A DNA stretch of 64,000 nucleotides. It comes from an uncultured Gammaproteobacteria bacterium (lineage in GTDB: Bacteria; Patescibacteriota; Patescibacteriia; Magasanikbacterales; JBBTXJ01). The translations under genes and the position numbers were made by a program. The stretch is from assembly GCA_964610305.1 (NCBI GenBank), contig CAZSVL010000001.1, positions 6,083 through 70,082 of the forward strand, given 5' to 3'. Positions 17,341-41,908 of this stretch are shown here, piece by piece. Within the stretch, counting starts at the first letter, position 1. The number at the start of each line of letters is the position of its first letter. The notes under the pieces were generated by a model that was given only the letters and a program-made list of their open reading frames with translations, was not told where the DNA came from and did not search any database.

Positions 17341-17503
17341 GCCGCGGCGCGGGCGTCATCCCGGAATTTTGCGCAGCAAAATATCCGGGATCTCAAGAAC
17401 GCTTTGCCGCAGGTGTTTTTACTTGAGATCCCGGGTCAAGCCCGGGATGACAAGATGCGAAGCATTTTAGAAAAAGATACCACGGCCGTGAGGCCGTGGA
17501 GTT
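17341..17503. repeat. composite intergenic repeat, copy B (about 165 bp), twin of 671-834; ends at the dinB stop codon
   Basis: Type-1 hairpin 17355-17394, type-2 hairpin (rev) 17422-17454, tail ...GACAAGATGCGAAGC...ACCACGGCCGTGAGGCCGTGGAGTTTCATTTAAG. Confidence 0.7.
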
Positions 17504-18820
17504 TCATTTAAGAGGTCTCGCTAGAAGAGGAATTCCAATACGCTGCCTCAACGTTTCTCCTTTAAAGAGGGTTTTTTTACGCAGGCCAGACTCATGGCGT
17601 TCGTGCGTGCCGTCTGGTCCTTTTTGCACTTTTTGTGCGGCGCCCATAAAGACGGTGTGTTTGCCGTATTTTTTGTCTAAATCATCCACGGCGTCAAAAA
17701 TCCTATCTAATTTATGGGTGCGATTAGTGTCAGAGAATAAATCTAGCTGCACCGTTTTCTCATCTTTTAGTTTGTGAAGAGCTACGCTGGTGGATCTATA
17801 AAAGGTGTCTTTTTTAAAGAGTTTGTCATACGCTGCTCGTGCAGCGGCTATAACATCTACGGGGTTATTGCTGGCATGGGCCAATGTAACAGATGCGCCG
17901 CGTCTACTAAAGTTTTTTTTGTGGAGCGCAAAGGTAACCTTTGGGCATACTAAATTCATGCGCCTGGCTTTTATACACGCGTTTTCTATATTTCTACATA
18001 GATGCGCAAAGACCAGCTCTTTATCTGAGCTGCTAGGAGAGAAGGTTTTTTTCTTACGAATAGATTGGCGTGGCTTGGGTGGCGCATCGGTAACGGAGTA
18101 TATCAGCCGTCCGTTAAGCTCATGCCAAATTTCCTGGTGAGGTTTAGTAAGATAGCGCATGACCCAGTCTTCATCCTTTTTTGCGAGAGTTAGTGCGTCG
18201 CGAATGCCCATAATACGCAGATATTCATGTGTACGCGGACCAATGCCCCATATATCTTTTGGATGTGTGTCTTTAAGGAATTCATGAATTTTGCGGCCGG
18301 GAATTTGCGTGATGCCAAAAGGTTTTTTCCACTTGCTGGCCACTTTTGAAAGTACTTTTGTGGGAGCCAAACCTAAGGAAAACGTCATGCCCAGCTCTTT
18401 GTAAAGTGTATCCTGCAGCGTTTTAAGAATTTTAGGAAAGCTCATGCGTAGTGGTCTGCGCATGCCGGTGAGGTCCGCAAAGCATTCATCTATGCTGTAT
18501 TCTTCAACGGTGTGTGTGTACCGGCGGACAATATCAAAAAAACGCTGAGAAAAGAGGCTGTAACTTTCATAATCTGAAGGAACAAAAATAACATCGGGGC
18601 AGAGCTTTTTAATAGTGTGATATGGCATGGCGCGCGTAACGCCCGCGGCTTTTGCCTCATAAGAAATAGAGGCTGCAATACCGCGTTCTTTTCCGGTAAT
18701 AACGGGCTTACCCTTCCACGCAGGATTAAGCGCTTGCTCGCAAGAAGCAAAAAAAGCATCGCCATCTATATGCAAAATGGCGCGTGGATAAGAGCTAAGC
18801 ATGAGTGGTTGGGTAGGCAT
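17504..18820 (-). CDS. dinB: Y-family DNA polymerase IV (DinB)
   Basis: ILHIDGDAFFASCEQALNP catalytic N-terminus, SIDECFADLTG, little-finger region; start taken at the MPTQPL ATG. Confidence 0.85.
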   Translation of the reverse strand: MPTQPLMLSSYPRAILHIDGDAFFASCEQALNPAWKGKPVITGKERGIAASISYEAKAAGVTRAMPYHTIKKLCPDVIFVPSDYESYSLFSQRFFDIVRRYTHTVEEYSIDECFADLTGMRRPLRMSFPKILKTLQDTLYKELGMTFSLGLAPTKVLSKVASKWKKPFGITQIPGRKIHEFLKDTHPKDIWGIGPRTHEYLRIMGIRDALTLAKKDEDWVMRYLTKPHQEIWHELNGRLIYSVTDAPPKPRQSIRKKKTFSPSSSDKELVFAHLCRNIENACIKARRMNLVCPKVTFALHKKNFSRRGASVTLAHASNNPVDVIAAARAAYDKLFKKDTFYRSTSVALHKLKDEKTVQLDLFSDTNRTHKLDRIFDAVDDLDKKYGKHTVFMGAAQKVQKGPDGTHERHESGLRKKTLFKGETLRQRIGIPLLARPLK

Positions 18821-18915
18821 GTTTTCCACTTGACAGATGGTCGAAGGTGAAGTATATTGGATACACAAATGGCTTCGGCCTCCGAGACCTCGCACACCCG
18901 TGCGAGGATCGTTTT

Positions 18916-19314
18916 TTATATAAAACTTTTAATTTTTTTCTTTATTTCTTCGAATTCATCTTTTGGTAGCGTACGGATTTTTCTTAATAAACGTTTGGTG
19001 CTGATTAGTTTTAATTGCGAGAGGATAAGTGTGTAAGTCTTATTTTTGTATATCGTTTCATGATAATATTTTCCTTGTTTAATTTTAGTACTTAACGGGA
19101 TTACCCATAAAAGATGCGGATTAAAACCTTTTAGAACAAGGGCAGGTCTTTGAAATGAGGCACCTTTTCCGTCCTGCTCGTGGCCCAAGTTTACTCCAAA
19201 ACTACACCACCAAATTTCTCGTTTTTGATAGAAGATAGTAGATCCTTTAATTTTTTGTTGCAGTCGTATTTTTAGCTTTGTCCATTGAACTATCTCATTT
19301 ATTTTTTTACTCAT
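18916..19314 (-). CDS. PemK/MazF-family endoribonuclease toxin-like protein (132 aa) with no adjacent antitoxin
   Basis: REIWWCSFGVNLGHEQDGK...RPALVL, then IPLSTK and a C-terminal helix, parallel the PemK/MazF motifs (GEIWLVSLDPTAGHEQQGTRPVLIV...P.T...); lies between lexA and dinB. Confidence 0.6.
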   Translation of the reverse strand: MSKKINEIVQWTKLKIRLQQKIKGSTIFYQKREIWWCSFGVNLGHEQDGKGASFQRPALVLKGFNPHLLWVIPLSTKIKQGKYYHETIYKNKTYTLILSQLKLISTKRLLRKIRTLPKDEFEEIKKKIKSFI

Positions 19315-19319
19315 ACCAG

Positions 19320-19880
19320 CTAGTACTTCCGCACCACACCAATAACCACCGCTGCAATATTAAGCTCTTCTTCTGGAATTATATTTTCAAATGATTTATT
19401 TTCTGCTTGCAGATACACTTTTTTTCCAGACTTGCGTAGGCGTTTAAGGGTCCATGCGTGGTCCACCTCTGCAATAACAATGTCTCCGTCTGTGGCGCTG
19501 CGCCCGCGCTCTGCCAGCACCATATCTCCTGGCATAATGCCCGCCTCAGACATACTCATGCCCGATACTTTAAGCATAAACGTACTCTCTGGACGCTCCA
19601 GTAGCCATTGATCCAAGCTAAGGGTGTCCACGAGCTCTTCTTCTGCGGCAGAGGGAAATCCTGCTTCTATGGATCCTAAAACCGCCAGCTCTCCCAATCG
19701 ATGGGGGAGCAGCTTGCCTTGCGTGTCCTTTTTTAAAAACCCTTCATCTAAAAGTTTGCGTACCACCTTATAAGCCGCGTTTTTAGATTTAAACCCAAGC
19801 AGCTGCGCAATTTCACCGTAGCTGGGCATGCGTCTGTTTTTTTTATAAAACGAATGAATTTTATGAAGATGTTTTGGCAT
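19320..19880 (-). CDS. lexA: LexA repressor (S24 peptidase)
   Basis: N-terminal winged HTH (SYGEIAQLLGFKSKNAAYKVVRKL), AV^LG cleavage region, Ser (VSGMSMSEAG) and Lys (WTLKRL) catalytic dyad. Confidence 0.9.
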   Translation of the reverse strand: MPKHLHKIHSFYKKNRRMPSYGEIAQLLGFKSKNAAYKVVRKLLDEGFLKKDTQGKLLPHRLGELAVLGSIEAGFPSAAEEELVDTLSLDQWLLERPESTFMLKVSGMSMSEAGIMPGDMVLAERGRSATDGDIVIAEVDHAWTLKRLRKSGKKVYLQAENKSFENIIPEEELNIAAVVIGVVRKY

Positions 19881-20458: not shown

Positions 20459-21160
20459 TTACGCACGCACAATCAGATGCTGCTTGCGCTTTCCAAAACC
20501 TGAGCTTTTGATTTTGAAAATCGCTTCTGTGCTGCACGCTGTATTTGGACACGCGTGAACATATCCTCTTTCTCCCAATCCAATAAAACTTAGCCACCCA
20601 ACAGCTTTGGTTCCTCTAAACTCAAGTTCATGTTGGGTTTGTGTCCTTCCGCCAAAAGGATCGGTGTTTATGCCACCGCAGTCAGGATTGCCGCAAAGAG
20701 GCTCAAGATTCATGATATCATCAAGCAGTGCAAGCATGACATGGTCACTGATTTTTGGCTCAGGACACTTGTGCCTTGGCTCTTCTGCCCACCTAGCAAA
20801 TCCTCTTTTGGGATCGCTTTCTGAATGGATGGGGACATAGATTTTGCCACCAACATAGACGCCGTCTTTGGGCAGGGGGCCTGCAGCACGGCATCTGATT
20901 TCATCAAACAGAATCCAGACGTGAACTCCCACAGACATTACAAGTGCAAGCCAAGCGTACATTTCAAAGTCGGGGCTCCACTGTCTTTCTTTGATAAGTA
21001 CCTGGCCTACATATTCCATACCAGAAAGCAGCGCAAATATTAAAGCAAACGCCAATACCGTACAAACGCCAATCATCTTGAGCAGGTATGTAAGCTCTCC
21101 CTCGTGGAGTTTTTTAATTGCGGTGACCAAAATGACCTCCTGTTGAATTAAATTAAGCAT
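20459..21160 (-). CDS. hypothetical membrane protein with two C-x4-C pairs (CGNPDC, CPNTAC)
   Basis: 233-aa ORF, two N-terminal TM helices, Cys-rich C-terminal region; family not recognised. Confidence 0.45.
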   Translation of the reverse strand: MLNLIQQEVILVTAIKKLHEGELTYLLKMIGVCTVLAFALIFALLSGMEYVGQVLIKERQWSPDFEMYAWLALVMSVGVHVWILFDEIRCRAAGPLPKDGVYVGGKIYVPIHSESDPKRGFARWAEEPRHKCPEPKISDHVMLALLDDIMNLEPLCGNPDCGGINTDPFGGRTQTQHELEFRGTKAVGWLSFIGLGERGYVHACPNTACSTEAIFKIKSSGFGKRKQHLIVRA

Positions 21161-22282: not shown

Positions 22283-22951
22283 TTACGCTTGCGCTTTTGC
22301 GCCCAGCACGTCTTTTTCAAACTCTTTAATAGCAGCACGGAACTGTTCATCTGTTGCGTGCTCGCCTCTATTATGCTGTTCTTTAAACTTATCACTCATG
22401 AATCGGGAAAAAAATTCCACGTGCTGCTCTGTTTCCAGTTTTCTTGTAAAGAGTTCAACCATGTTTCCCTGGGCAGGGCTGCAAATATGAATTTTATGAG
22501 TCCTGTTGTCTTCCTGCAGCTGATTGAGTTCATTGTTAAAGATTCCCGCAAACATGGCACCTAAAATGGTATGCATAAACGCGGTAAGAAATGCAACAAA
22601 GATGGAGAAGAGAGGCTCGTTTTGCCCAATCTCTCTTGCACTCTTTGGCACATGCTTTTTGCTCATGAGCTGCGGCGTAAGCGCCAAAAAGACTGCAATG
22701 ATGGCCTCTGCCATGTGATCAAAGTATGGGCTTATTAGCTTGTACTCATCAAAATCAAAGGCGATAGGCGCGGATACGTCCCAGTTGCCATAATCACGAG
22801 CGCTACGCAGTGCGTAATACACATCTAGCTGAGAAACCTTTTTTTTGAAATGAGTAACATCAGCTTCATCCATCTGAAGCGGCCGCTCTATCTGCTCTGA
22901 AATGCTCTGATTCACACCCTCTACAAAATCTTTACCAGACCAGGTTATCAT
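22283..22951 (-). CDS. hypothetical protein (222 aa) with a central hydrophobic segment
   Basis: Long ORF with coding-like composition; no recognisable motif. Confidence 0.4.
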   Translation of the reverse strand: MITWSGKDFVEGVNQSISEQIERPLQMDEADVTHFKKKVSQLDVYYALRSARDYGNWDVSAPIAFDFDEYKLISPYFDHMAEAIIAVFLALTPQLMSKKHVPKSAREIGQNEPLFSIFVAFLTAFMHTILGAMFAGIFNNELNQLQEDNRTHKIHICSPAQGNMVELFTRKLETEQHVEFFSRFMSDKFKEQHNRGEHATDEQFRAAIKEFEKDVLGAKAQA

Positions 22952-23375: not shown

Positions 23376-23419
23376 ATTAAAAAAGCGATCCGAGCGGATC
23401 GCTGATGTGCTTAAATAAT

Positions 23420-24712
23420 TTACAGCAGATGTACAACGGGAGCTGTCATGTGGGTCTTATTTATGTGGTGATTTTCAACGAAAGGCCACTGTGCAAGCTG
23501 CCATCGTGGTATGTCGGGATAGATTATTGAGCAAAAATCAATGCCTGTATCTACTCTATAAGGCAATCCACTCATTTGAAAGCTGTATTCGCCGCTAGAG
23601 GCGCGCCATGGATGTTGGGCCATCATCATGATAATTTCCAGGCCGGCCGCATTAGGGCCTATATCTTGCTTTAGGATGCCGCCAGGATTTGCGCACGTGT
23701 CAACAATTGCCCACTGCAGTCCCGGAATCCATGGAGTTTTATGATGGGGCTGCAGATTTTTTAGGTCAAAGTCGCTAATAAGCGAGAATGCCGGCGGTCC
23801 GGTTGCCGAAAAGCTCCATATTCCGGGTTTGGGAAGATGTGCCCAGCGAAAGTATGCCTGCATGGTTCGATGATACCCAGATACGCCATCTTTGTCTGGG
23901 AGTCGCGTGATGAGGATTACACTTTTGCTTGGATCAGAGACAGCCGGTGGTTTCTTCAGCGATTCAAACCAATGATTTGGTATATCCCATTCATCTATTT
24001 CGGCTCGGTGCCTGATCAGTTCCGGAAGATGCTCTGCAAGAGTATCTTTCATGGCCTCTGCATCCTGATTGCCGCGTAGATTTTTTTCATCTAGGCTGAT
24101 GCCAACCTTTACAACGCGCAGCGCCACGTCTTTTGTAGGATCGTCTAAGGTGTGCACGATACGATTTCGTAAAGAGCGCATAGATAGGTGAATGTCGCGA
24201 TTGGCGTAAATGACCATTACGGCTTGGAAACGCTCTGCGGCATCTTCGCTAGAAGCCTGTTGGCGTAAATGTCTCCAATTTAGTTTTACAGGAGCGCTTG
24301 TATGTTGCGTATTTTGTTGCCGCTCAATGTCCCAACTCTCTGAAGGAACAATAAATTTGGGATTGTCAAAATAGCTACAAAGGCAGTGGTAGATTTCTAC
24401 TGCCTGCCTGGCCTCCTGTTGCGTGGGCTCGTAGGCGTTATGAACCACGTGGGCGCGAAAGTCAATAACCCAAGATAAGGCGTTTTTTGCAGTTTCGCTC
24501 CATCCACCAGCAAGTGTAGTGTGACCCACATCTACAAATGACTTAAACACGCTCATTTTAGGATCGGTGATCCACGCAATTGGATCGTCAACGGTATCTG
24601 CGTACTGTCTGCATAACGCCTGTTCAAAGAGCACGCTGGCCTTTACTACGGCGCGATAGCGGTGTGCTGGGTTGTCACTCTGAGCATTAGCTAGCAGTTG
24701 CTGCCATGTCAT
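23420..24712 (-). CDS. predicted defence/abortive-infection-type protein with two HEPN-like Rx4H motifs (N-terminal DUF4145-like domain) and an unassigned C-terminal domain
   Basis: FRAHVVHN and LRNRIVHT (R-x4-H) inside helical domains; N-terminal 120 aa resemble DUF4145; about 430 aa from the MTWQQLL start. Confidence 0.45.
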   Translation of the reverse strand: MTWQQLLANAQSDNPAHRYRAVVKASVLFEQALCRQYADTVDDPIAWITDPKMSVFKSFVDVGHTTLAGGWSETAKNALSWVIDFRAHVVHNAYEPTQQEARQAVEIYHCLCSYFDNPKFIVPSESWDIERQQNTQHTSAPVKLNWRHLRQQASSEDAAERFQAVMVIYANRDIHLSMRSLRNRIVHTLDDPTKDVALRVVKVGISLDEKNLRGNQDAEAMKDTLAEHLPELIRHRAEIDEWDIPNHWFESLKKPPAVSDPSKSVILITRLPDKDGVSGYHRTMQAYFRWAHLPKPGIWSFSATGPPAFSLISDFDLKNLQPHHKTPWIPGLQWAIVDTCANPGGILKQDIGPNAAGLEIIMMMAQHPWRASSGEYSFQMSGLPYRVDTGIDFCSIIYPDIPRWQLAQWPFVENHHINKTHMTAPVVHLL

Positions 24713-24810
24713 TTTGCCTCCTTTTTGTCTGTGGTGAGTGTATGCGGTTTTTGGGGGGTTGTCAAGGGGTTTTTGTGGCTTGTCGGTTTCTTCGTGATAT
24801 AATATTCGGC

Positions 24811-25479
24811 ATGGAGGGTGCCCAAAAATACACAATAAAGCAGCTACCGCGTGTAGAAAGGCCGCGGGAGAAGTTGATTGCCTATGGGCCGGGGAAGCTT
24901 TCTAACTCTGAACTTTTGGCGATTTTGTTGCGGACGGGGAAGAGGGGGGAGAATGTTGTTGAGATGGCGCGGAAGATTTTGCAGCGGTTTGGTAGCGGCG
25001 GATTGCATAATGCGTCTTTTAAAGATTTGGTGCAATATGTCGGGCTCGGTCCGGCAAAGGCATGTGAGATTGTGGCGTGTTTTGAGCTTGGAAAACGTTT
25101 GCTCAAAGACAAAAAGACGGTTTTGATAATGTCCGCGCAAGACGTTTGGTAGCAGGTGGCGGATATTCGAGGCAACAAAAAAGAGCATTTTGTAGTTTTT
25201 TATCTGGATACGCGGAATCAGCAGATTAAAAGGGAGATAATTTCAGTCGGAACGTTAAACGCCAGCCTGGTACACCCACGTGAAGTATTCGAACCGGCAA
25301 TCCGTTACAACGCCGCACACGTTATCGTCGCGCACAATCATCCGTCAGGAGATCCGGAGCCGTCACAAGAAGATTTCACTTTAACTCGGCGGCTTGTGGA
25401 TGCGGGGAAAATTCTAGGAATTGCACTGTTGGATCACGTGATTATGACAAAAGAATTTTATTTTAGCATAAAATTATAA
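24811..25479 (+). pseudogene. radC: radC (RadC/UPF0758 JAB-domain protein) interrupted by one in-frame TAG (25150-25152)
   Basis: N-half LSNSELLAILLRTGKRGENVVEMARKIL (HhH) and C-half HFVVFYLDTRNQ...HPREVF...AHNHPSGDPEPS (JAMM motif) are in the same frame, separated only by TGG-TAG-CAG. Confidence 0.6.
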
Positions 25480-25481
25480 TT

Positions 25482-25510
25482 TTGTTACCTATTGACATGA
25501 TAGGTAACAA
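25482..25510 (+). promoter_or_regulatory. 11-bp perfect inverted repeat TTGTTACCTAT-N7-ATAGGTAACAA overlapping a TTGACA -35 box; putative antitoxin operator/promoter
   Basis: TTGACA 25492-97, 17-nt spacer, TATACT about 25515-20, then ATG 25530. Confidence 0.5.
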
Positions 25511-25529
25511 AATATATACTTACTACATT

Positions 25530-25793
25530 ATGAAACAGACAGATAAGCCGTATCTTTCAACCGCGGAGCTCGCAGATTTGCTTGGCATAAGTAGGGTAGA
25601 GGTTTTTCGAAAAATTAAAAAAGGTCTTATTCCCGCTGAAAAAAAAGGTAGGAATTTTTTGATTCTTAAAAAAGATATTGAAAATTTGTTGAGTGGTACA
25701 TTGACCGCTGGTAAAAAGCGTCAAATCGATATTGCGGTTGATAAGACTTTAGCGGAATATGGAGAGACTCTAAAGCTACTTGGGCAAGAATAG
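25530..25793 (+). CDS. HTH (excisionase/MerR-like HTH_17) DNA-binding protein; putative antitoxin
   Basis: LSTAELADLLGISRVEVFRKIKKGLIPAEKKGRNFLI helix-turn-helix; 1-nt gap to the Doc gene. Confidence 0.55.
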   Translation: MKQTDKPYLSTAELADLLGISRVEVFRKIKKGLIPAEKKGRNFLILKKDIENLLSGTLTAGKKRQIDIAVDKTLAEYGETLKLLGQE

Positions 25794-25794
25794 C

Positions 25795-26226
25795 ATGGCT
25801 AAAATATCGTCTATAACAGTTGCAGATATAGAGCATCTTGCTCATCGGCTTGCTAAAAAGATGTTTGAGTGGAACGAGCCGATTCCTGATTTTGGGACGC
25901 GTTACCCTAATAAGCTTGAAAGCTGTATAGCTGTGCCATTTCAGACATTTTCGAAGCGGATATTATATAAGGGTCTTTTGGAAAAAGCAGCCATACTTTT
26001 CTATCTGATGATCAAAAACCATCCGTTTCAGAATGGTAACAAGCGTATTGCCATGACGACGTTGTTTGTTTTTCTTCATATAAATGGCAAGTGGTTGGAG
26101 GTTGATAATCAGAAATTGTATAATTTTGCAAAGTGGGTTGCTGCGAGTGACGCAGAAGTAAAAGATGCGACCGTGTTAGCGATAAAGGATTTCTTGAAAA
26201 AGCATCTGGTTAATTTAGAGAAATAA
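25795..26226 (+). CDS. Fic/Doc-family toxin (death-on-curing type)
   Basis: HPFQNGNKRIAMTTLFVFLHINGK matches the Fic/Doc core HxFx(D/N)GNKR. Confidence 0.75.
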   Translation: MAKISSITVADIEHLAHRLAKKMFEWNEPIPDFGTRYPNKLESCIAVPFQTFSKRILYKGLLEKAAILFYLMIKNHPFQNGNKRIAMTTLFVFLHINGKWLEVDNQKLYNFAKWVAASDAEVKDATVLAIKDFLKKHLVNLEK

Positions 26227-26229
26227 TTT

Positions 26230-27678
26230 ATGTTCGAACAATCATTTAAAAATATTGATAACGCGCTCCGTAAAGACGCGGGGGTGAGCAGTGAGCTTGA
26301 TTATGTGGAGCAAACCTCATGGGTTTTGTTTTTGAAATATCTTGATGATTTGGAGCGGGACAAGGAGAAAGAGGCTGCGCTTGCTGGGAAGACGTATGAG
26401 TATATTATTGATCCAAAGTATAGGTGGGAGGCGTGGGCTGTGCCAAAGACGGCTGATGGCAAGTTGGATCATAATACCGCGCTCTCTGGGGATGATCTTA
26501 AGGACTTTGTGGATCATGAGTTGTTTCCGTATTTAAAAAAGTTCAAAAGTGAGGCAGAAAGTCCGGATACCATTGAATACAAAATCGGGGAGATTTTTAG
26601 TGAGCTTAAGAATAAAATACAAAGCGGGTATACGTTGCGTAGCATTTTGGATATTGTTGACGGCATGCGTTTCCGATCGCAAGAGGAAAAGCATGAGCTC
26701 TCTCATCTCTACGAGGGCAAAATCAAGAACATGGGCAATGCTGGCAGAAACGGTGGGGAATACTACACGCCGCGTCCGCTTATTAAGACGATTGTCAAAG
26801 TTGTTGCTCCAGAGATTGGCAACACAATTTATGATGGTGCTGTTGGCTCAGCGGGTTTTTTGGTGGAAGCGTTTGAGTATTTGAAAGAAAGCAAAGATCT
26901 TTCAGTTAAAGATTTTGAAACACTTCAGAAAAAAACTTTTTACGGCAAAGAAAAGAAATCGCTTGCGTATATCATCGGCATCATGAATATGATTTTGCAC
27001 GGCATTGAGGCGCCGAACATTATCCACACAAACACACTTGCAGAAAACATCGCTGATTTTCAAGAAAAAGATCGATACGATATTGTCCTTGCTAATCCGC
27101 CGTTTGGAGGAAAAGAGCGCAAAGAGGTGCAGCAGAATTTTCCAATCAAAACCGGCGAGACTGCTTTTCTGTTCCTCCAACATTTCATAAAAATCCTCAA
27201 AGCTGGAGGTCGGGGTGGTGTGGTTATAAAAAACACTTTCCTTTCCAATGCCGATAACGCCGCCATTTCACTCCGCAAAATGCTTCTAGAAAGCTGCAAA
27301 CTTCATACCGTTTTAGATTTGCCCGGCGGAACATTTTTGGGCGCCGGAGTAAAAACTGTTGTCCTTTTTTTCGAAAAAGGCACACCAACAAAAAAAATCT
27401 GGTACTACCAACTAAACCTCGATAGAAACCTAGGCAAAACAAACCCACTCAACGAAAAGGACCTTGCAGAATTTGTAGAACTACAAAAAACCAAAGCCGA
27501 CTCTGAAAATTCCTGGACTTTGGATGTGAAAGATATTGATCCGCGGATTTTTGATCTGTCAGTAAAGAATCCGAATGGTGGTGGGGAGATTGAGTTGAGA
27601 AGTCCAGAGGAGATTTTGGAGGAGATGAGGGGGTTGGATAAGGAGAGTAGTCGTATTTTTATCGATATTGAAGAATAG
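26230..27678 (+). CDS. hsdM: type I restriction-modification N6-adenine DNA methyltransferase subunit HsdM
   Basis: N-terminal HsdM_N, SAM motif I, motif IV LANPPFGGKE; 482 aa. Confidence 0.9.
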   Translation: MFEQSFKNIDNALRKDAGVSSELDYVEQTSWVLFLKYLDDLERDKEKEAALAGKTYEYIIDPKYRWEAWAVPKTADGKLDHNTALSGDDLKDFVDHELFPYLKKFKSEAESPDTIEYKIGEIFSELKNKIQSGYTLRSILDIVDGMRFRSQEEKHELSHLYEGKIKNMGNAGRNGGEYYTPRPLIKTIVKVVAPEIGNTIYDGAVGSAGFLVEAFEYLKESKDLSVKDFETLQKKTFYGKEKKSLAYIIGIMNMILHGIEAPNIIHTNTLAENIADFQEKDRYDIVLANPPFGGKERKEVQQNFPIKTGETAFLFLQHFIKILKAGGRGGVVIKNTFLSNADNAAISLRKMLLESCKLHTVLDLPGGTFLGAGVKTVVLFFEKGTPTKKIWYYQLNLDRNLGKTNPLNEKDLAEFVELQKTKADSENSWTLDVKDIDPRIFDLSVKNPNGGGEIELRSPEEILEEMRGLDKESSRIFIDIEE

Positions 27679-27684
27679 GATTTT

Positions 27685-28737
27685 ATGATTTCTGATTCCT
27701 CGCTAAAGGAGTTGCTGAGGCTCAAGAGAGGTGGATATTTATACCATCGTGAAAGTCAAACCTTGGAATTCAAAGAGTCGTTTAGTCTTAGTGCGTTAGC
27801 AGATTACTTTCGCGATTTTGCTGCTTTTGCAAATAACAAGGGTGGTTATTTGGTTTTTGGCGTTAAGGATAGTCCAAATACGCTCGTCGGGCTGACCCCT
27901 AAATCTCAAAAGCAATTTGAAAAAGTAGATCCGGAAAAAATTTCCGGGTACCTTCTAGATATTTTTTCTCCAAATATCGATTGGCTTCAGAGGTCTATTA
28001 AAATTGCCTCTAAGCATTACGGTGTTTTTTACATACACGAAGCTAAAGTTAAGCCCGTGATAGCCAAAAAAGATGAGGGTAAAGACCAGGTCATAAAAAA
28101 TGGGGAAGTATATTACCGGTATGGTGGGAGAACGCAGAAGATACAATTTGCCGAGTTGGAAAATATTATTCAGAAAAGGTTAGAGTCACAGACACAGCAG
28201 TGGCAGAATCTCATTTCTAAAATTGCCAAGGCGGGCCCTTCGAATGCCGCGGTACTCGATACCGAAAGAGGTTTGATAGAAAAAAGTGATACACAGGTTC
28301 TGCTAATGGATGACAAGCTTGCCAAGAAGATAAAATTTGTAAAGGAGGGTGAATTTAGCGGCAAGGAAGGTGATTTGGCGTTACGGCTGGTTGGCGATGT
28401 GCTGCCTGTGAATCCCGTTGAGATTACAAAAATCAAGAAACAAAGACTCACTGAGGAATATCCGTACTCAGCTTTAGAATTGGTCGAGGAAGTTAGAAAG
28501 AAGTTGTCCGGGGCAATGCAAGGTGATGTATGGAAAGTGATTGCGGAAAACAGCCTAAAAAGTAACACAGATTATTCTGCTTACAATTTTCGCAACAAAA
28601 GGCAAGAGGATAAGTTCAAGGAATCTGGAGAATTACCTAAATCAATTCCCAATATATATAATGATGATGCGGTTGATTTCATAGTAAAAGTTTTGAAAGA
28701 CAAAAAGAATGAAAATAGAGAAGAAACAAAAAAATAA
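27685..28737 (+). CDS. AlbA_2 / Schlafen-like (divergent AAA, putative DNA-binding) domain protein inserted between hsdM and hsdS
   Basis: RESQTLEFKESFS...AFANNKGGYLVFGVKD matches the AlbA_2 (PF04326-type) N-terminal signature; C-terminal 200 aa unassigned. Confidence 0.55.
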   Translation: MISDSSLKELLRLKRGGYLYHRESQTLEFKESFSLSALADYFRDFAAFANNKGGYLVFGVKDSPNTLVGLTPKSQKQFEKVDPEKISGYLLDIFSPNIDWLQRSIKIASKHYGVFYIHEAKVKPVIAKKDEGKDQVIKNGEVYYRYGGRTQKIQFAELENIIQKRLESQTQQWQNLISKIAKAGPSNAAVLDTERGLIEKSDTQVLLMDDKLAKKIKFVKEGEFSGKEGDLALRLVGDVLPVNPVEITKIKKQRLTEEYPYSALELVEEVRKKLSGAMQGDVWKVIAENSLKSNTDYSAYNFRNKRQEDKFKESGELPKSIPNIYNDDAVDFIVKVLKDKKNENREETKK

Positions 28738-29842
28738 CTGGCAAACAAAAAAGCTTGGAGATGTGATCAAGTTAGAATACGGAAAGCCGCTCCCAAAATC
28801 TAAAAGGAGATTAGATGGTCTTTATCCAGTGTATGGCGCTAATGGAGTAAAAGCCAAAAGTGATGAGTATTATTTTTACAAACCGAGCATTATTGTTGGT
28901 AGAAAAGGTACGGCTGGAGCATTAACCTTGACAGAGGAAAGATTTTGGCCTCTAGATGTTACGTATTTCGTGACGTTTGATGAAAAAAAGTATGATTTGA
29001 AGTTTCTTTTTGGTCTTTTGAGCACACTGGATTTGCCGCGTTTTGCGAAGGGTGTGAAGCCTGGAATAAATAGAAATGATATCCACGCATTGAGCGTCAA
29101 AGTACCGACCCTCCCAGAACAAAAACGCATTGTAAAAATTCTTGATCAGACGTTTGAAAAAATAGAAAGAGCAAAAGAGAATACGCAAAAGAATCTACAA
29201 AATGCACGAGAGCTTTTTGAGTCATATTTACAGGAGGTTTTTGCAAATCCGGGGGAGGGTTGGGAAGAGAAACGGTTGGGCGCGGTGTATGATGTGCGTG
29301 ATGGGACGCATGCCTCACCAAAATATCACAAAGAAGGATATGCTCTGATTACTTCAAAAAATTTAAAGAATGATACTTTAAATTTTGATAAAATAAGATA
29401 TATTTCAGAAAAAGATTATTTGAAGATAAATGAAAGGAGTAAGGTTGATGTTGGGGACGTTTTGTTTGCCATGATTGGTACAATTGGTAATCCTGTTGTA
29501 ATTAAAGATGAGCCTAATTTTGCGATAAAGAATGTTGCTCTGTTTAAGGTTCCACAAGATCAGGATAGTTTTTTCTTAAAGTACTACCTGGATTCTAAAT
29601 TTGTGGGAGATAAAATGTCCAAGGAGGCAAAAGGAACTACACAAAAGTTCGTTGGGTTGGGGTATCTAAGAAATTTTGAAATTAAAATACCCAAGAAGCC
29701 AACACAGAAAACCATCGTCAATAAACTTGACTCTCTCTCAGAAAAAACCAAAAAACTAGAATCAATCTATCAAAAAAAGCTGGATAATTTGGAAGAGTTG
29801 AAGAAGTCTGTGCTCAAGAAGGCGTTTAGTGGGGAATTATGA
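28709..29842 (+). CDS. hsdS: type I restriction-modification specificity subunit HsdS (two target-recognition domains)
   Basis: Duplicated TRD plus conserved helices (LPEQKRIVKILD..., C-terminal LKKSVLKKAFSGEL). Confidence 0.85.
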   Translation: MKIEKKQKNNWQTKKLGDVIKLEYGKPLPKSKRRLDGLYPVYGANGVKAKSDEYYFYKPSIIVGRKGTAGALTLTEERFWPLDVTYFVTFDEKKYDLKFLFGLLSTLDLPRFAKGVKPGINRNDIHALSVKVPTLPEQKRIVKILDQTFEKIERAKENTQKNLQNARELFESYLQEVFANPGEGWEEKRLGAVYDVRDGTHASPKYHKEGYALITSKNLKNDTLNFDKIRYISEKDYLKINERSKVDVGDVLFAMIGTIGNPVVIKDEPNFAIKNVALFKVPQDQDSFFLKYYLDSKFVGDKMSKEAKGTTQKFVGLGYLRNFEIKIPKKPTQKTIVNKLDSLSEKTKKLESIYQKKLDNLEELKKSVLKKAFSGEL

Positions 29843-30072
29843 GAATTAATCTATAAATATATGAACCAAAATAAAACATGCCAGACTTGTGGGGTGGAAT
29901 TAAAGCACTCTAAATTCGCCAGAAGAACGAATGAGGGTCAGGATTTCGTGAGCGCACAAGAGAATCTTGCTTGCCGAAACTATCCAGAATGTCCAAGGGC
30001 AGAGAAAGAAACGGAAGGGGATATGGATTTTGATTGACAAAATCGTAGTTTTGTGCTAAGTTAAGGCGATTT

Positions 30073-32403
30073 ATGAACGAAGCCGAAACAAGAGCAGAAT
30101 ACACTGACCCCAAGCTAAAGGAGGCTGGCTGGGGTGAAATTGAAGGATCGAAAGTTTTTCGGGAGTTTTATATTACTGAAGGGCGGATTCAGGCTGGTGG
30201 GGGTCGTGCAAATCCGGAGAGGGCTGATTATGTTTTGGCATACAAAAATCAAAAGCTTGCGGTGATTGAGGCAAAGAGCGATGAGGAGGAGCCAACAGAG
30301 GGTGTGCAGCAGGCAAAGAGTCAGGCAGAGAAACTGCACTTGGATTATGCCTATTCAACAAACGGCAAAAAGATTTATGAGATTTCAATGGAGACGGGGA
30401 GAGAAGATTTTGTTGATTCGTTTCCTGGTCCGGAAGAGCTGTGGAATAGGATAAACGCAAAATCTAATGAGTGGAAAGAAAAGTTTTCTTCTGTGCCTTT
30501 TGAAAATGTGGGCGGCAGAATGGGTGCGCGGTATTATCAGGAAATTGCGGTGAATAAAACAATGGATGCAATTGCAGATGATAAAAAGCGAATACTCCTT
30601 ACGCTTGCAACGGGGACGGGAAAAACGTTTATTGCCTTTCAGATTGCGTGGAAGCTTTTTCATTCGAGATGGAATTTGAAACGCGATGGAAAGCGTCGGC
30701 CGCGGATTCTGTTTTTAGCTGATAGAAACATCTTGGCAGATCAGGCGTTTAATGCGTTTTTTGCTTTTCCAGAAGATGCTTTGGCGCGTATCAGCCCGCT
30801 GGATATTCGCAGACAAGGAGCGGTGCCCACAAACGCAAATATTTTTTTCACAATCTTTCAGACCTTCATGAGTGGGCCAAAGGGCACGCCGTACTTTGGC
30901 GATTATCCGTCTGATTTTTTCGATTTTATTGTTATTGATGAATGTCACCGTGGTGGCGCAAATGATGAATCAAACTGGCGTGCTATCATGGAGCATTTTT
31001 CTCCCGCAGTGCAACTTGGTCTTACAGCAACACCAAAGAGAAAGGATAACATCGATACATACAGATATTTTGGCGAGCCAGTGTATATTTATTCGCTCAA
31101 AGAGGGTATTAACGATGGCTTTTTAACGCCATTTAAGGTAAAGCGTGTTCAAACAACGATTGATAAGTATAGGTATGTGTCTGATGATCAAATTATTGAA
31201 GGAGAGATTGAGGAGGGGAAGCTTTATGAAGAGCCAGATTTTAATAGGATTATTGAGATTAAAGAGCGGGAAGCAAAGCGTGTGCGTGTTTTGTTGGATG
31301 AGATAGATCAGAATGAGAAGACCATTGTTTTTTGCGCCACGCAAGATCATGCGCTGGCAGTTCGTGATTTGATCAATCAGTATAAAGAGAGTAAACAACC
31401 AAACTATTGTGTGCGTGTGACAGCTAATGATGGCGTGCGTGGGGAACAGTATTTGCGAGAGTTTCAGGATAATGAAAAAACAATTCCAACGATTTTGACT
31501 ACATCACAAAAGCTGTCAACCGGAGTGGACGCGCGGAATGTGCGCAATATTGTTTTGATGCGGCCGGTTAATACCATGGTTGAGTTTAAACAGATTGTGG
31601 GGCGTGGAACGCGGCTTTTTGATGGTAAAGAATACTTTACTATTTTCGATTTTGTTGATGCGTATAAACATTTTTCTGATCCGGAATGGGATGGTGAGCC
31701 TATTGATGAGACTGCGGAGAAGAAGTATAAGAAGCCCAAAAAGGGTGCGGGAGAAGTAGCTGATCGTGCTGAACGAGAGTACGGCGAGGAGCAAGAGAAA
31801 AGAAAGAAAATCAAAATTAAATTGCGTGATGGGAAAGAGCGCGAAATTCAGCATATGATCTCCACGTCATTTTGGAGTGCAGACGGTACACCAATTTCTG
31901 CAGAGGAGTTTTTGCGCAACATGTACGGGGAGTTGACTGAGTTATTCAAAAATGAGGCGGAGCTGAGGAAGATTTGGTCTAACCCAACTACACGTAAGAC
32001 ATTTTTGGATCAGATTGCAGAGCATGGATACGGTAAAGATGTGCTAGAAACTTTGCAAAAAATGATTGACGCGCAAGAAAGTGATCTGTTTGATGTGCTG
32101 GCGTATGTTGCTTTTGCGATGCCGCCGATTACACGTGAGGAGCGCGTTGCCGGTTCTAAGAAGAAGATTTTTGATGGCGTGGATGAAAATCAGCAAGAAT
32201 TCTTAGAATTTGTTCTCGCTAAGTATATTGACGATGGTGTGACGGAGTTGGCTGAAGATAAGTTGCCGATTTTGTTAAATTTGAAATACCATGCAATCGC
32301 GGACGCTGAAAAAGAAATGGGTGGCGTTGAGCAAATTCGATCTACGTTTTTTACTTTTCAAAAGAAGTTGTACAAAAAGGCGCGATTGCGTCAAGTGGCT
32401 TAA
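30073..32403 (+). CDS. hsdR: type I restriction enzyme R subunit HsdR
   Basis: N-terminal NEAETRAEYTDPKLKEAGW nuclease domain, helicase motif I LATGTGKT, motif II DECHRG, motif VI QIVGRGTR. Confidence 0.9.
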   Translation: MNEAETRAEYTDPKLKEAGWGEIEGSKVFREFYITEGRIQAGGGRANPERADYVLAYKNQKLAVIEAKSDEEEPTEGVQQAKSQAEKLHLDYAYSTNGKKIYEISMETGREDFVDSFPGPEELWNRINAKSNEWKEKFSSVPFENVGGRMGARYYQEIAVNKTMDAIADDKKRILLTLATGTGKTFIAFQIAWKLFHSRWNLKRDGKRRPRILFLADRNILADQAFNAFFAFPEDALARISPLDIRRQGAVPTNANIFFTIFQTFMSGPKGTPYFGDYPSDFFDFIVIDECHRGGANDESNWRAIMEHFSPAVQLGLTATPKRKDNIDTYRYFGEPVYIYSLKEGINDGFLTPFKVKRVQTTIDKYRYVSDDQIIEGEIEEGKLYEEPDFNRIIEIKEREAKRVRVLLDEIDQNEKTIVFCATQDHALAVRDLINQYKESKQPNYCVRVTANDGVRGEQYLREFQDNEKTIPTILTTSQKLSTGVDARNVRNIVLMRPVNTMVEFKQIVGRGTRLFDGKEYFTIFDFVDAYKHFSDPEWDGEPIDETAEKKYKKPKKGAGEVADRAEREYGEEQEKRKKIKIKLRDGKEREIQHMISTSFWSADGTPISAEEFLRNMYGELTELFKNEAELRKIWSNPTTRKTFLDQIAEHGYGKDVLETLQKMIDAQESDLFDVLAYVAFAMPPITREERVAGSKKKIFDGVDENQQEFLEFVLAKYIDDGVTELAEDKLPILLNLKYHAIADAEKEMGGVEQIRSTFFTFQKKLYKKARLRQVA

Positions 32404-32406
32404 AAT

Positions 32407-33099
32407 ATGAAAAACAAAGAAGGACTTTGGAAACTTTCGCCCAGCGGACTGTACGGATTCACCGAATGCAAATCCTGTTTTTGGGTAGATAATCACTACA
32501 GACGCGCGCCGTCTTTGCCTTGGCTTTTGAATAGCGCGATGGATAGTATTTTAAAGCATCGGTATGATAAGTATCGCAAGAAAAATACGTTTCCGCCGGA
32601 GGTTTTGGAGCTTGAGGAAGAGGGGATTATTCCGTTTGCGGATTTGGATACTTTGAATGAATGGCGTGAGAAGGTGAATGTTTTGCGTGTTGTAGATGAA
32701 AAAGCCAGTTATGAATTGCGCGGCAAAATAGATGATGTTTTGGTGGAAAAAGATGGTCGGCTTGTTCCGGCTGACTATAAATCTTCCGGAAACGCGCCAA
32801 AGGAGGATAAGCAGAAATATTATATAGATCAGCTGACGGCGTATGGTTTTATGTTTAAAAAACATGGCCATGAAGTTTCTGATCGCGCTTACTTGCTTCA
32901 TTATTTCCCGCGCGACAAAACCAACCCATCAACAAAAGTACAATTTGACGGCCACGTGGATTTTGTAAAGATAGATTTAAAAAGGTTTGAGAAAAAGTTA
33001 AAAGACATGGTGAAATTGCTTAATGGCGAATATCCCGGGCACAACCCTGAGTGCAACAAGTGCGCGTATTATGAGGGGCGTGGGGAGCGGGTGAAGTAG
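32407..33099 (+). CDS. PD-(D/E)XK nuclease-like protein with N- and C-terminal CxxC pairs (Cas4/DUF83-like), directly downstream of hsdR
   Basis: GKIDDVLVEKDG...ADYKSS (D...D/ExK), TECKSC and ECNKC cysteine pairs; 3-nt gap from hsdR. Confidence 0.5.
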   Translation: MKNKEGLWKLSPSGLYGFTECKSCFWVDNHYRRAPSLPWLLNSAMDSILKHRYDKYRKKNTFPPEVLELEEEGIIPFADLDTLNEWREKVNVLRVVDEKASYELRGKIDDVLVEKDGRLVPADYKSSGNAPKEDKQKYYIDQLTAYGFMFKKHGHEVSDRAYLLHYFPRDKTNPSTKVQFDGHVDFVKIDLKRFEKKLKDMVKLLNGEYPGHNPECNKCAYYEGRGERVK

Positions 33100-33118
33100 A
33101 TCAAAACACCAAGCTTTT

Positions 33119-33162
33119 CTTGAGATCCCGGATATTTTGCTTCACAAAATTCCGGGAGACAG
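33119..33162 (-). repeat. solo type-1 hairpin repeat (variant ...CCGGGAGACAG)
   Basis: CTTGAGATCCCGGATATTTTGCTTCACAAAATTCCGGGAGACAG; followed by a terminator-like hairpin at 33176-33203. Confidence 0.65.
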
Positions 33163-33202
33163 GTGCGCTACGAATAAAAAAGCGGTCCGAAGACCGCTCA
33201 CT

Positions 33203-34141
33203 TTACTCAGGCCGCTTGTTTGCAGCCATAAATTCTGTAACTGTGGCTATTATGCCTGCAGACCCGACGGGGTTATTTTTTTCTAGCTCTGCAATGACAT
33301 TGCTTGCTCCGCGGTGGTCTCCTAGGCATAACAAGTACATGATCAGGGCTTGGTAGAACTCTACCATGGATGTTCTGTTTACAAAGGGTCGGCCGGCGTA
33401 GTCTAGGTATTCAAGAGGTTTGCCCATTTTGTCTGAAAATGATTCGTGATAATTGATCCGATTTGTGTACGTATAGGCGATGGTTCCAAGAGGATCACCA
33501 ATGTGCACTGGTGCCTGCAGATCCTCCCTGTATGCGGATATGGCCGATTCAACAAGGAACAGTCCGGCAAGCGCATCCAATAGTCTGATAATCATACGCT
33601 CTATGCTAATGCGTAGTGGTGGTTTTTCTGGCAACAGAGAAATGGTGTGGTCAATGCAGCTTATGTAGCAGTCAGTCAATCCGTTGTATGCATTGCGCAA
33701 ATCAGCAAGGGTGGAGTTGTGGGTGATACTGCCCGATGCAGCAGAAACCTCTAGATGTTGAGCGTCACGGCTCTGAAAGAAGGCTGTGCCTATGAGTCCT
33801 TCAACACTTCTTATGAACACGGCTTGTGTTTCTGTAAACAGGCGCAGGGCAAAAAGAGAATCTCTGCCAAGAGTGGCTCTTACGCTCTCTACGGCATCCC
33901 ACATTGCTTCTTTTTTTCTACTATCTGCCCTATCTCTGTGGAGTCCAAAGTGATGCAGTGTTTCATCTGGCGCAACCCTAAGCTGTTCAATAAGAAGCAT
34001 GGCCACGTTATATTCTGGCAGCGCTCGTCCAAGCATTTGCGCAATGCATATGTTCATCATCTGCACAGCTAGCCTTTCTGACCCTTCTGGCATAAGGACA
34101 CGCGGCTTTTCCTTAAGTATCCGGGAAAGTCTGTCTGACAT
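33203..34141 (-). CDS. hypothetical protein (312 aa)
   Basis: Long ORF, coding-like composition; no assignable motif. Confidence 0.4.
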   Translation of the reverse strand: MSDRLSRILKEKPRVLMPEGSERLAVQMMNICIAQMLGRALPEYNVAMLLIEQLRVAPDETLHHFGLHRDRADSRKKEAMWDAVESVRATLGRDSLFALRLFTETQAVFIRSVEGLIGTAFFQSRDAQHLEVSAASGSITHNSTLADLRNAYNGLTDCYISCIDHTISLLPEKPPLRISIERMIIRLLDALAGLFLVESAISAYREDLQAPVHIGDPLGTIAYTYTNRINYHESFSDKMGKPLEYLDYAGRPFVNRTSMVEFYQALIMYLLCLGDHRGASNVIAELEKNNPVGSAGIIATVTEFMAANKRPE

Positions 34142-34241: not shown

Positions 34242-34535
34242 ATGAAAAGAAAATTCAAAACCGATAAATACCGACGCGCGCGTGGGGGGTACTCTCGCGT
34301 GCTTGAGATTTCTTGCAGCGCCTGCGATAATGTAGTTTGTGAGTATCAAAAGGACGGTCCAGGGCCGCTAAAGCGAATGTATGTTGATAGGATGATGGGA
34401 ATACTAAGCACAAAACAATTGCAATGCGGACCATGCGATAATTTGTTGGGTGTTTTGTATGTTTACCAAAAAGAAAAGCGGCCGGCGTTCAGGATGGTTC
34501 CGGGAAGTTTTAGAAAGAGGATCGTGAAATTGTAA
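34242..34535 (+). CDS. hypothetical zinc-ribbon-like protein (CSAC...C...CGPC)
   Basis: 97-aa basic ORF with two CxxC pairs. Confidence 0.35.
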   Translation: MKRKFKTDKYRRARGGYSRVLEISCSACDNVVCEYQKDGPGPLKRMYVDRMMGILSTKQLQCGPCDNLLGVLYVYQKEKRPAFRMVPGSFRKRIVKL

Positions 34536-35650: not shown

Positions 35651-35727
35651 GTGAGATCCCGGATATTTTGCTCCGCAAAATTCCGGGATGACGTGGCGGA
35701 TGATTCCCAAAATTTCGGGATGACAAG
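35651..35727 (-). repeat. type-1 hairpin repeat plus an adjacent partial second copy
   Basis: GTGAGATCCCGGATATTTTGCTCCGCAAAATTCCGGGATGAC, then GATTCCCAAAATTTCGGGATGACAAG. Confidence 0.65.
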
Positions 35728-39605: not shown

Positions 39606-39713
39606 ATTTCAGCACTTTTGTCAAGAGGTAAACGTCTTTTTTTGGCTTAAATTAGCCAAGTTTTTGATCACTCTTTGACCTCGCCAGCGGGGTGTGAAAC
39701 AATACCCATACTC

Positions 39714-41507: not shown

Positions 41508-41544
41508 TTGTGGTATAATAACGGCACGCTCAAAGGGTGCGACT

Positions 41545-41584
41545 GTCATCCCGGAATTTTGCGAAGCAAAATATCCGGGATCTC
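41545..41584 (+). repeat. solo type-1 hairpin repeat
   Basis: GTCATCCCGGAATTTTGCGAAGCAAAATATCCGGGATCTC, essentially identical to 17355-17394. Confidence 0.7.
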
Positions 41585-41634
41585 CCAGAAAATAAAAAAT
41601 CAATTTTATCTTCAAAAAGAAAGGAGGTGCAAAA

Positions 41635-41841
41635 ATGAAAAATCTACACATGCTCACTTGGCTGTTGGTAGTAATTGGTGCGCTCAACTGGGGAGTTTAC
41701 GCTCTGTTTGGTTGGGAAGTAGGCCAGCTGTTTGGTGGAATGGACGCAACGGCGTCTAAGGTAATTTATATATTGGTAGGTGCGTCTGCGGTACTGGAGC
41801 TCATGGGACACAAAAAAGGCTGCAAAGCGTGCTCAAAATAA
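41635..41841 (+). CDS. DUF378-family small membrane protein
   Basis: LTWLLVVIGALNWGVYALFGWEVGQLFGG...KVIYILVGASAV, two-TM DUF378 pattern. Confidence 0.65.
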   Translation: MKNLHMLTWLLVVIGALNWGVYALFGWEVGQLFGGMDATASKVIYILVGASAVLELMGHKKGCKACSK

Positions 41842-41908
41842 GGTTATTTGCAAAATCGGCCGCCAGCCGATTTTGTTTTTTACATATGATCAGGTAAACT
41901 ACAGCTCT

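Follow-up and report, generated by a model that had tools for sequence, protein, structure and literature searches.

A probably acquired type I restriction operon with embedded Doc and Schlafen genes at a variable position in the genome of a probable Patescibacteria member

A 64,000-nt stretch of DNA from a probable Patescibacteria (candidate phyla radiation, CPR) bacterium carries a run of neighbouring genes with defence signatures, which the initial annotation had read as one island of about 10 kb at positions 23420-33162. This stretch is referred to here as the window, and all coordinates are positions within it unless another locus is named. Which of these genes belong together, where does the unit start and end, and what might its products do? 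A defence module is indeed present, with a shorter extent than had been proposed: we consider it probable (about 0.7) that positions 25479-32403, about 6.9 kb, form a single operon and a coherent acquired unit, lodged in a variable slot between radC and a gene for a Cas4-like nuclease. The latter two genes are read as conserved flanks and not as defence cargo. The analysis used the profile libraries Pfam, NCBIfam, PADLOC and PDB. In searches with the first two and PADLOC, most of the domain calls made initially scored well above threshold, the HEPN call being the exception, and the housekeeping flanks (DUF1905, LD-carboxypeptidase and GreA) were confirmed.

The operon encodes, on a single strand and in this order, an HTH_17-type helix-turn-helix (HTH) protein, a Doc toxin, HsdM, a Schlafen protein, HsdS, a 58-codon zinc-ribbon open reading frame (ORF) and HsdR. 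Neighbouring genes overlap or are separated by at most 6 nt, except across the 229-nt hsdS-hsdR interval that holds the 58-codon ORF, and the catalytic motifs of the encoded proteins, as read from the sequence, are all intact. The G+C content of the operon is 0.407, versus 0.453 in the remainder of the window, with the lowest values in the HTH, Doc, Schlafen and hsdS genes (0.365-0.393); radC (0.468) and the HEPN-like gene next to it (0.484) are host-like. The operon was probably acquired horizontally, a conclusion for which we take the G+C contrast as modest, supporting evidence only. A search for att-like repeats around the operon returned just short repeats at chance level.

The boundaries follow from the conservation of the nuclease gene and of its surroundings. 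The gene starts 3 nt past the hsdR stop codon and is probably co-transcribed with the operon here. The best 120 of its 317 homologues are 66-82% identical, and Berkelbacteria and Patescibacteria are the sources of the few that carry names. The family seems to be highly conserved and largely restricted to CPR bacteria, and it was not found in viral contigs or phage records. The genomic context of the nuclease could be read in seven genomes, namely the window and six others, and restriction-type genes of differing types stand directly upstream in five of these six (six of seven with the window). In L131 the upstream genes encode a type II methyltransferase (E=1e-98) and a 176-residue protein without assignment, followed by a 39-residue ORF and a 3-nt gap, with guaA downstream. 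L133 carries a 305-residue protein without assignment and a LexA-fused type II methyltransferase upstream, and an HD protein downstream. The corresponding region of L134 holds genes for a MutH-like nuclease, a LexA/S24-fused methyltransferase, PDC-S19/DUF3644 and DUF7718/DUF5647, with a DUF2914 gene further downstream, and L135 has an NmeDI_C-type nuclease and a DndB/DpdB-like gene upstream and DUF433/DUF5615 downstream. The nuclease gene of L137 is preceded by a serine recombinase and genes without assignment, and is followed after 5 nt by RmuC. As a background estimate, about 1-2% of 150 ORFs sampled from other CPR contigs look restriction-related, based on one REase_II family match and on type II methyltransferase families represented once each, families and not proteins having been tabulated.

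Two of these genomes share their gene order with the window. L133 is collinear with it over RecR, YbaB, DnaB (60% identical) and a glycosyltransferase, over the nuclease (74%), and over four further genes at 42.7-49.4 kb of the window. L134 has, in the order and orientation seen in the window, genes for a RadC N-terminal domain (44% identical), for the nuclease (72%) and for a DUF2914 protein (44%). Across L131, L133 and L134 the nuclease is 72-77% identical. Because the gene order is kept while the upstream content differs, the nuclease gene is best regarded as chromosomally inherited and the position upstream of it as variable. The accessory hotspot proposed earlier is therefore supported with other boundaries and another membership, as the slot corresponds to the radC-to-nuclease interval; the PD-(D/E)XK nuclease with CxxC pairs, formerly placed at the trailing end of the island, retains its domain assignment and becomes a conserved flank. 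That the slot is a hotspot is likely rather than proven. A scan of the genome collection with LdcA gave a best match of 52% identity with no common neighbours, and no close relative is present in that collection.

L134 also hints at how the slot may be filled. A 79-bp direct repeat (positions 7200-7278 and 7973-8051 of that locus, 96% identical) reproduces the first 76 nt of the nuclease gene and brackets the DUF7718/DUF5647 pair, a cassette some 0.7 kb long; we read this as a footprint of insertion at the start of the nuclease gene. The window contains no comparable repeat, and a comparison across genomes found no extra conservation of the nuclease 5' end over the rest of the gene at the DNA level. 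A 25-nt hairpin is also repeated in L134, at 6966-6990 and 8714-8738. The methyltransferases of L133 (6800-7909, minus strand) and L134 (4097-5557, minus strand) are type II enzymes fused to an N-terminal LexA DNA-binding domain, with an additional Peptidase_S24 domain in L134; this fusion is unusual and suggests SOS-linked control of methylation.

Table 1. Features of the operon, its flanks and adjacent elements in the window
Feature	Position	Strand	Matches and remarks
Orphan protein, 430 aa	23420-24712	-	Sub-threshold HEPN-type matches only
radC, left flank	24706-25479	+	UPF0758_N E=2e-27; RadC JAB E=2e-42
Control region	25479-25520	+	Near-consensus promoter and perfect 14-nt inverted repeat; putative operator
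HTH_17/excisionase-family DNA-binding protein, 87 aa	25530-25793	+	Counted from the ATG after the promoter; mechanical ORF from TTG 25482
Doc-type Fic toxin, 143 aa	25795-26226	+	From the ATG 2 nt past the HTH stop; ORF from TTG 25780
hsdM, methyltransferase subunit	26230-27678	+	N6_Mtase E=2e-61; HsdM_N E=3e-9; PADLOC MTase_I E=4e-158
Prokaryotic Schlafen (AlbA_2) protein, 350 aa	27685-28737	+	Pfam SLFN_AlbA_2 E=6e-21, 75.5 bits (gathering threshold 25.3)
hsdS, specificity subunit, two target-recognition domains	28709-29842	+	Methylase_S E=9e-34 in two stretches; PADLOC Specificity_I E=7e-63
Putative 58-codon ORF at the hsdS-hsdR junction	29861-30037	+	CxxC...CxxxxxC; resembles a topoisomerase-type zinc ribbon
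hsdR, restriction/translocase subunit	30073-32403	+	ResIII E=1.5e-36; EcoEI_R_C E=1.4e-27; PADLOC REase_I E=1e-139
Cas4-like PD-(D/E)XK nuclease, 230 aa	32407-33099	+	PDDEXK_1 E=8e-13; one N-terminal and one C-terminal CxxC
Palindromic element copy	33126-33157		Core TCCCGGATATTTTGC-N4-GCAAAATTCCGGGA; conserved flanks TTCTTGAGA and TGAC

The backbone of the operon is a restriction-modification system of type I, as had been proposed, and its three subunits are borne out by the Pfam and PADLOC matches in Table 1. HsdM carries an NPPF motif (LANPPFGG in the translation). The hsdS gene, whose start overlaps the end of the Schlafen gene by 29 nt, encodes the specificity subunit. HsdR also matches SWI2_SNF2, Helicase_C and the solved Vibrio HsdR (PDB 3h1t, E=2e-141), and displays a PD-(D/E)XK motif (D...EAK) and the helicase motifs TGTGKT and DECH, followed by an EcoEI_R_C tail. 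By these features of HsdM, HsdS and HsdR, the predicted type I system is complete. The 58-codon ORF at the hsdS-hsdR junction aligns with Zn_ribbon_Top1 at E=0.011 and 16 bits, for a cut-off of 32 bits, and a homologue was not found in any fetched locus.

The operon begins with a compact control region. A promoter that matches the consensus at 11 of 12 positions (TTGACA-17-TATACT, 25492-25520) has its -35 box enclosed by an inverted repeat with perfect 14-nt arms, ATTTTGTTACCTAT-N7-ATAGGTAACAAAAT (25479-25513), which starts on the final nucleotide of the stop codon of radC. Because promoter and palindrome end upstream of it, the ATG at 25530 is the most likely start of the HTH gene. The encoded protein matches Pfam HTH_17 (E=6e-10 to 8e-10), NCBIfam TIGR01764 (35.1 bits; cut-off 28.8) and PADLOC mad1 (E=3e-8), and is thus of the excisionase/MerR-like type; no antitoxin of the Phd/YefM type was found upstream of Doc. 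The toxin matches Pfam Fic (E=8e-13) and NCBIfam DOC_P1 (E=3e-14, 53.2 bits; cut-off 38.65), as well as PADLOC PDC-S23 (E=2.5e-20, in the C-terminal half of that candidate) and the Doc family protein of PDB 9vzc (E=2e-7). Its translation contains the Doc-type, kinase-type motif HPFQNGNKR, in agreement with HxFx(D/N)(A/G)NKR. Both genes of the toxin-antitoxin pair called initially are therefore present, and the antitoxin role is assigned by position. The palindrome over the promoter, the close spacing to Doc and a 33-residue tail beyond the DNA-binding domain make it likely that the HTH protein represses the operon and also serves as the Doc antitoxin. An assignment of the locus to MADS instead of type I was rejected, as the mad1, mad2 and mad5 models alone match, with scores far below those of the type I models, and the other genes have no mad match.

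The gene inserted between hsdM and hsdS, initially labelled AlbA_2, is confirmed in domain and position and encodes a prokaryotic Schlafen. Its N-terminal nuclease domain contains E23-x4-E28-x-K30 and D62, all four invariant in an alignment of 48 sequences. The AlphaFold model computed with this alignment is well defined for the N-terminal domain and for the last 100 residues (250-350), and poorly defined for residues 126-250, which have no domain assignment. A Foldseek search with the model returned SLFN13, SLFN11, SLFN14, SLFN5 and the tRNase domain of SAMD9 with a probability of 1.0, and the C-terminal 100 residues show weak matches to PDC-S19 and an EC042_2821-like domain (E=0.0026 and E=0.04). 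Experiments have shown that prokaryotic Schlafens defend against phage and cleave tRNA (PMC13056530; tRNA cleavage also PMC13462974). In CbCash, mutation of E17, D22 or K24 abolishes tRNA cleavage (PMC13462974), and the triad of the window protein has the same spacing, E-x4-(E/D)-x-K. Schlafens with an unassigned C-terminus ("cluster 4") were linked to restriction systems in 2026 (PMC13462974), and prokaryotic Schlafen nucleases more generally have been described as restriction-linked (PMC13462974, PMC13056530), so that this association is already known and not new. Uncharacterised defence genes had been anticipated in the region; for the AlbA_2 gene this expectation did not hold, and the HEPN-like gene proved to be an orphan.

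The Schlafen family is very large, with 1240 matches; its members in Gammaproteobacteria, Bacteroidota and other groups are about 60-65% identical. In a survey of 80 metagenome loci, type I genes were counted within 4 kb of the Schlafen gene and were found in 12 (about 15%). Six of the 12 have the arrangement hsdS-Schlafen-hsdR or hsdS-Schlafen, and two have hsdM-Schlafen-hsdS or Schlafen-hsdS. Co-localisation with restriction-modification, the conservation of which was to be checked, is seen in a minority of loci. The most frequent families in the set of 116 directly neighbouring genes are Methylase_S (10) and HSDR_N (6), and the remainder are heterogeneous, with 1-4 occurrences each. Because the type I subunits at the other loci share, where alignable, only 23-31% identity with those of the window, the insertions of Schlafen genes into type I operons are independent. 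The two closest relatives (75-77% identical; L128 and L130) both adjoin hsdS, in operons with other cargo. The L128 module is similar to that of the window in Schlafen (77%) and HsdR (75%) and only 39% identical in HsdS, and carries a 345-residue HTH_DeoR-Fic protein (3044-4081 of that locus) at the hsdS-hsdR junction; in L130, a 647-residue HATPase_c_3 protein (1194-3134) lies between the Schlafen gene and hsdS. Two copies in genomes are solitary, the first lying in an island with an integrase and the second being flanked by housekeeping genes, and a search of plasmids for AlbA_2 found distant relatives only.

Two alternative readings concern the flanks. If the whole of 23420-33162 were one defence island, then the HEPN-like gene, radC and the nuclease would be cargo, which would suit the adjacency of all these genes, the origin of the weak HEPN-type matches in a defence library, and the similar terminator hairpins (16 nt, one mismatch) that bracket the stretch. 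The two terminators, however, serve different minus-strand genes, and their similarity is short and typical of such elements; the HEPN-like gene has a promoter-like and a terminator-like site of its own and shares with radC a host-like G+C content; a homologue of the radC N-terminal domain precedes the slot in L134, where it flanks other cargo; and the conserved nuclease keeps its place in the gene order of relatives that lack this operon. Taken together, these observations render a single large island highly improbable. It is somewhat more credible, and still rather unlikely, that the start of the CPR nuclease gene marks a repeatedly refilled defence slot, with the nuclease acting as a working partner of restriction systems in fragment processing or break repair, or with its 5' end serving as the insertion site of cassettes. 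A partnership is consistent with the restriction-type genes directly upstream in six of seven genomes, though of unrelated system types, with an upstream gap of just 3 nt in both the window and L131, and with the conservation of the nuclease (72-77%), which exceeds that of DnaB (60%) or of RadC and DUF2914 (44%) in the same genomes; an insertion site is suggested by the 79-bp repeat of L134. On the other hand, the restriction partners are completely different and no gene co-varies with the nuclease across what are only seven contexts, one of which (L137) has a recombinase upstream and RmuC immediately downstream. The neighbourhood in the window is in any case rich in DNA repair genes (RecR, a Y-family polymerase, RecQ and a second PD-(D/E)XK nuclease), and the absence of extra DNA-level conservation at the 5' end of the nuclease gene speaks against a special role of that end.

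The other two alternatives concern functions within the operon. The AlbA_2 protein might be a DNA-binding regulator or an accessory restriction subunit and not an RNase effector, in keeping with the database names "putative DNA-binding domain" and "predicted HTH transcriptional regulator" and with a C-terminal domain that is folded and might interact with nucleic acid. AlbA-fold proteins bind both DNA and RNA. We nevertheless consider this improbable, since about 85% of the homologues have no restriction genes nearby, and since the family is about 60% identical across phyla while the associated type I systems are so dissimilar. The invariant triad and D62, which match the CbCash residues (PMC13462974), point in the same direction. 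The possibility that the HTH protein only controls expression of the restriction genes, in the manner of a C protein or RptR, deserves more weight and is nonetheless on the unlikely side; Doc would then be a solitary effector, restrained by other means, and there would be no toxin-antitoxin pair. The HTH gene is the first of the operon, the palindrome overlaps the promoter, the protein matches mad1, a system-associated HTH, and RptR provides a precedent (PMC12255303). Against a pure controller stand the 2-nt distance between the HTH stop codon and the Doc ATG, and the tail beyond the DNA-binding domain, which is free to neutralise a toxin. Doc toxins are, moreover, normally paired with an upstream antitoxin, as in Phd-Doc.

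Several points also weigh against our preferred reading of an acquired operon in a variable slot. The G+C contrast is modest, and hsdM and hsdR (0.425-0.432) fall inside the host range. The functions of the operon are predicted from sequence, and HTH_17 is not the usual partner of Doc, which is Phd/YefM. The gene-order relatives are distant, as reflected in the 60% identity of DnaB, the "radC" gene of L134 has the N-terminal domain only, and the hotspot rests on seven genomes that possibly share ancestry. Furthermore, 68 of the 80 metagenome Schlafen loci and the two genomic copies have no adjacent type I system, and the protein must therefore be able to act alone. The same solitary homologues favour autonomous sensing over an obligate guarding of the restriction enzyme, and a guarding of the restriction complex by the Schlafen protein is speculative.

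A working mechanism can be proposed for the operon as a whole. An HTH dimer would bind the palindrome and repress transcription, while the C-terminal tail of the HTH protein would neutralise Doc. HsdM2S1 is expected to methylate a bipartite host target, and HsdR2M2S1 to translocate along and cut unmethylated incoming DNA. The Schlafen protein may be a latent tRNA endonuclease, triggered by infection sensed through its C-terminal part or, as with PrrC, by interference with the restriction complex; once fired, it would halt translation as a second, abortive layer. Doc would phosphorylate EF-Tu once the labile HTH protein is lost, which might stabilise the island or provide abortive killing as an additional layer.

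Among characterised architectures, the RRDM island of enteropathogenic E. coli comes closest; in it, an RptR repressor accompanies a type I system with embedded DarTG2, and its hsdS-hsdR junction was noted as a likely recombination hotspot for defence genes (PMC12255303). In both loci the first ORF encodes a small repressor, a predicted one in the window, with binding repeats at the promoter, and a toxin module is embedded in the type I operon. The regulator in the window, by contrast, is of the HTH_17/excisionase type with one 14-nt palindrome, whereas RptR recognises TAGCTA repeats, and the place of DarTG2 is taken by genes for a predicted Schlafen nuclease at the hsdM-hsdS junction and a predicted Doc toxin before hsdM. 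The Schlafen protein shares with pSlfn (PMC13056530), and with Cash and the cluster 4 proteins (PMC13462974), the AlbA_2 fold, the E-x4-(E/D)-x-K triad, an unannotated C-terminus and restriction neighbours. It differs from known prokaryotic Schlafens in having no Csx15, Ig-like, histidine-kinase/GHKL or Argonaute sensor domain. In the EcoprrI-PrrC system, an anticodon nuclease is encoded inside a type I system that keeps it latent, with prrC at the hsdS-hsdR junction. The window likewise has a gene for a predicted tRNA-targeting nuclease inside a type I operon, and the Schlafen insertions at other loci lie mostly at hsdS-hsdR, like prrC; the Schlafen protein, however, belongs to an unrelated family and has no ABC-ATPase domain, and most of its homologues are solitary.

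The toxin resembles Doc of the phage P1 Phd-Doc module (TIGR01550) in its Fic fold, its HxFx(D/N)(A/G)NKR motif and the small upstream gene that ends next to the toxin start, and differs in that its partner is HTH_17 and not Phd/YefM and that the pair heads a restriction operon. The flanking nuclease shares with Cas4/AddB-type nucleases its PDDEXK_1 fold, its four cysteines and the motifs D...D-x-K and QxxxY. It fails, however, the Cas4 equivalog model TIGR00372 (38.5 bits versus 65), and its cysteines are arranged as CxxC...CxxC; neither in the window nor in the six other contexts were cas genes found among its annotated neighbours. Every recognisable part of the locus thus falls into a known family and the architecture has published precedents, which makes this a fairly ordinary defence island. 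With its start and end corrected, it offers a clean case of defence by embedding in a CPR genome, in which a restriction operon carries two additional toxin-type effectors and a likely repressor of its own. Two leads emerge from it, neither of which overturns current views. The first is a family of 340-residue Schlafens, about 60% identical across phyla, which enters and leaves unrelated type I operons; the second is the conserved nuclease gene of CPR bacteria, a possible landmark for defence cassettes in poorly annotated CPR genomes.

Upstream of the operon, radC was described initially as split by an amber stop codon, and this is correct: an in-frame TAG at 25153-25155 separates the UPF0758_N and JAB domains, which are both present with no single intact reading frame. 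A reassignment of TAG as an explanation was rejected, as 9 of the 37 long ORFs of the window, the nuclease gene among them, terminate in TAG. Because TAG is an ordinary stop codon here, the TAG in radC represents a true nonsense codon or an assembly error and not recoding.

The HEPN-like gene on the opposite strand is best described as a separate, lineage-specific gene outside the operon. The "two-HEPN" or DUF4145 call was not upheld by the profiles, as DUF4145 reaches 17.7-20.1 bits for a gathering threshold of 23.1, and the PADLOC CARF_HEPN match is weak and below threshold (E=5.7e-5, 20.4 bits). Two Rx4H motifs, RAHVVH (residue 127) and RNRIVH (residue 223), fall within a stretch of predicted helix; the single-sequence AlphaFold model is unusable, with a predicted local distance difference test score (pLDDT) of 34. 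The N-terminal half is internally repeated (score 60, versus 27.5±4.8 for shuffled sequences), and the C-terminal 180 residues are unassigned. Word-indexed and full HMMER searches found no homologue, whether in 5.8 billion clustered proteins or among 1.84 billion representatives. "Two-HEPN" is accordingly a reasonable guess and nothing more. The gene itself is real: the ORF has 430 codons, a promoter-like site (24765-24737) and a terminator-like site (23403-23384) of its own, and an independent assembly (L127) contains it as well.

A hairpin repeat had been taken to mark the end of the island at 33119. The hairpin exists, at 33126-33157, and belongs to an element that is dispersed in this genome and does not mark a boundary. 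The palindromic element of about 45 nt, TTCTTGAGA-TCCCGGATATTTTGC-N4-GCAAAATTCCGGGA-TGAC, occurs in at least six copies in the window. In addition to the copy in Table 1, full copies lie at 5514-5545, 17359-17390, 35657-35688 and 41549-41580, a diverged copy lies near 688-730 and a half-site at 35707-35720. Matches to the arm number 16, versus 2.5 expected. The copies are all intergenic, mostly close behind a stop codon, and the element folds stably (z=-4.5). No Rfam family matches it and none of the 138 fetched loci contains it; it could be a repetitive extragenic palindromic (REP)-like element or a regulator site of this genome. The minus-strand terminator hairpins at 23378-23393 and 33175-33190, which bracket the coordinates first given for the island, share 15 of 16 nt. 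This similarity is probably a coincidence, given the typical composition of terminators.

Four further ORFs near the island, of 233 (20459-21160, minus strand), 222 (22283-22951, minus strand), 312 (33203-34141, minus strand) and 97 residues (34242-34535, plus strand), gave no Pfam match, and three of them, scanned against NCBIfam, gave no meaningful match there. The comparison with L134 shows a second variable gap, from the nuclease to DUF2914, which the 312-residue gene occupies. On the minus strand at 17504-19880, genes for a Peptidase_S24 protein (LexA/UmuD-like, 186 residues), a PemK/MazF toxin (132 residues) and a Y-family polymerase (IMS, 463 residues) are adjacent and form a cassette of the SOS-mutagenesis type with the MazF gene at its centre. 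At 39675-42775, a gene for RecQ (610 residues) precedes a copy of the palindromic element, behind which lies the gene for a second, larger PD-(D/E)XK, Cas4-like nuclease (331 residues; PDDEXK_1 E=1e-26). The sole Rfam match in the window is a ribosomal protein L10 leader (RF00557, 51 bits) at 51161-51300 on the plus strand.

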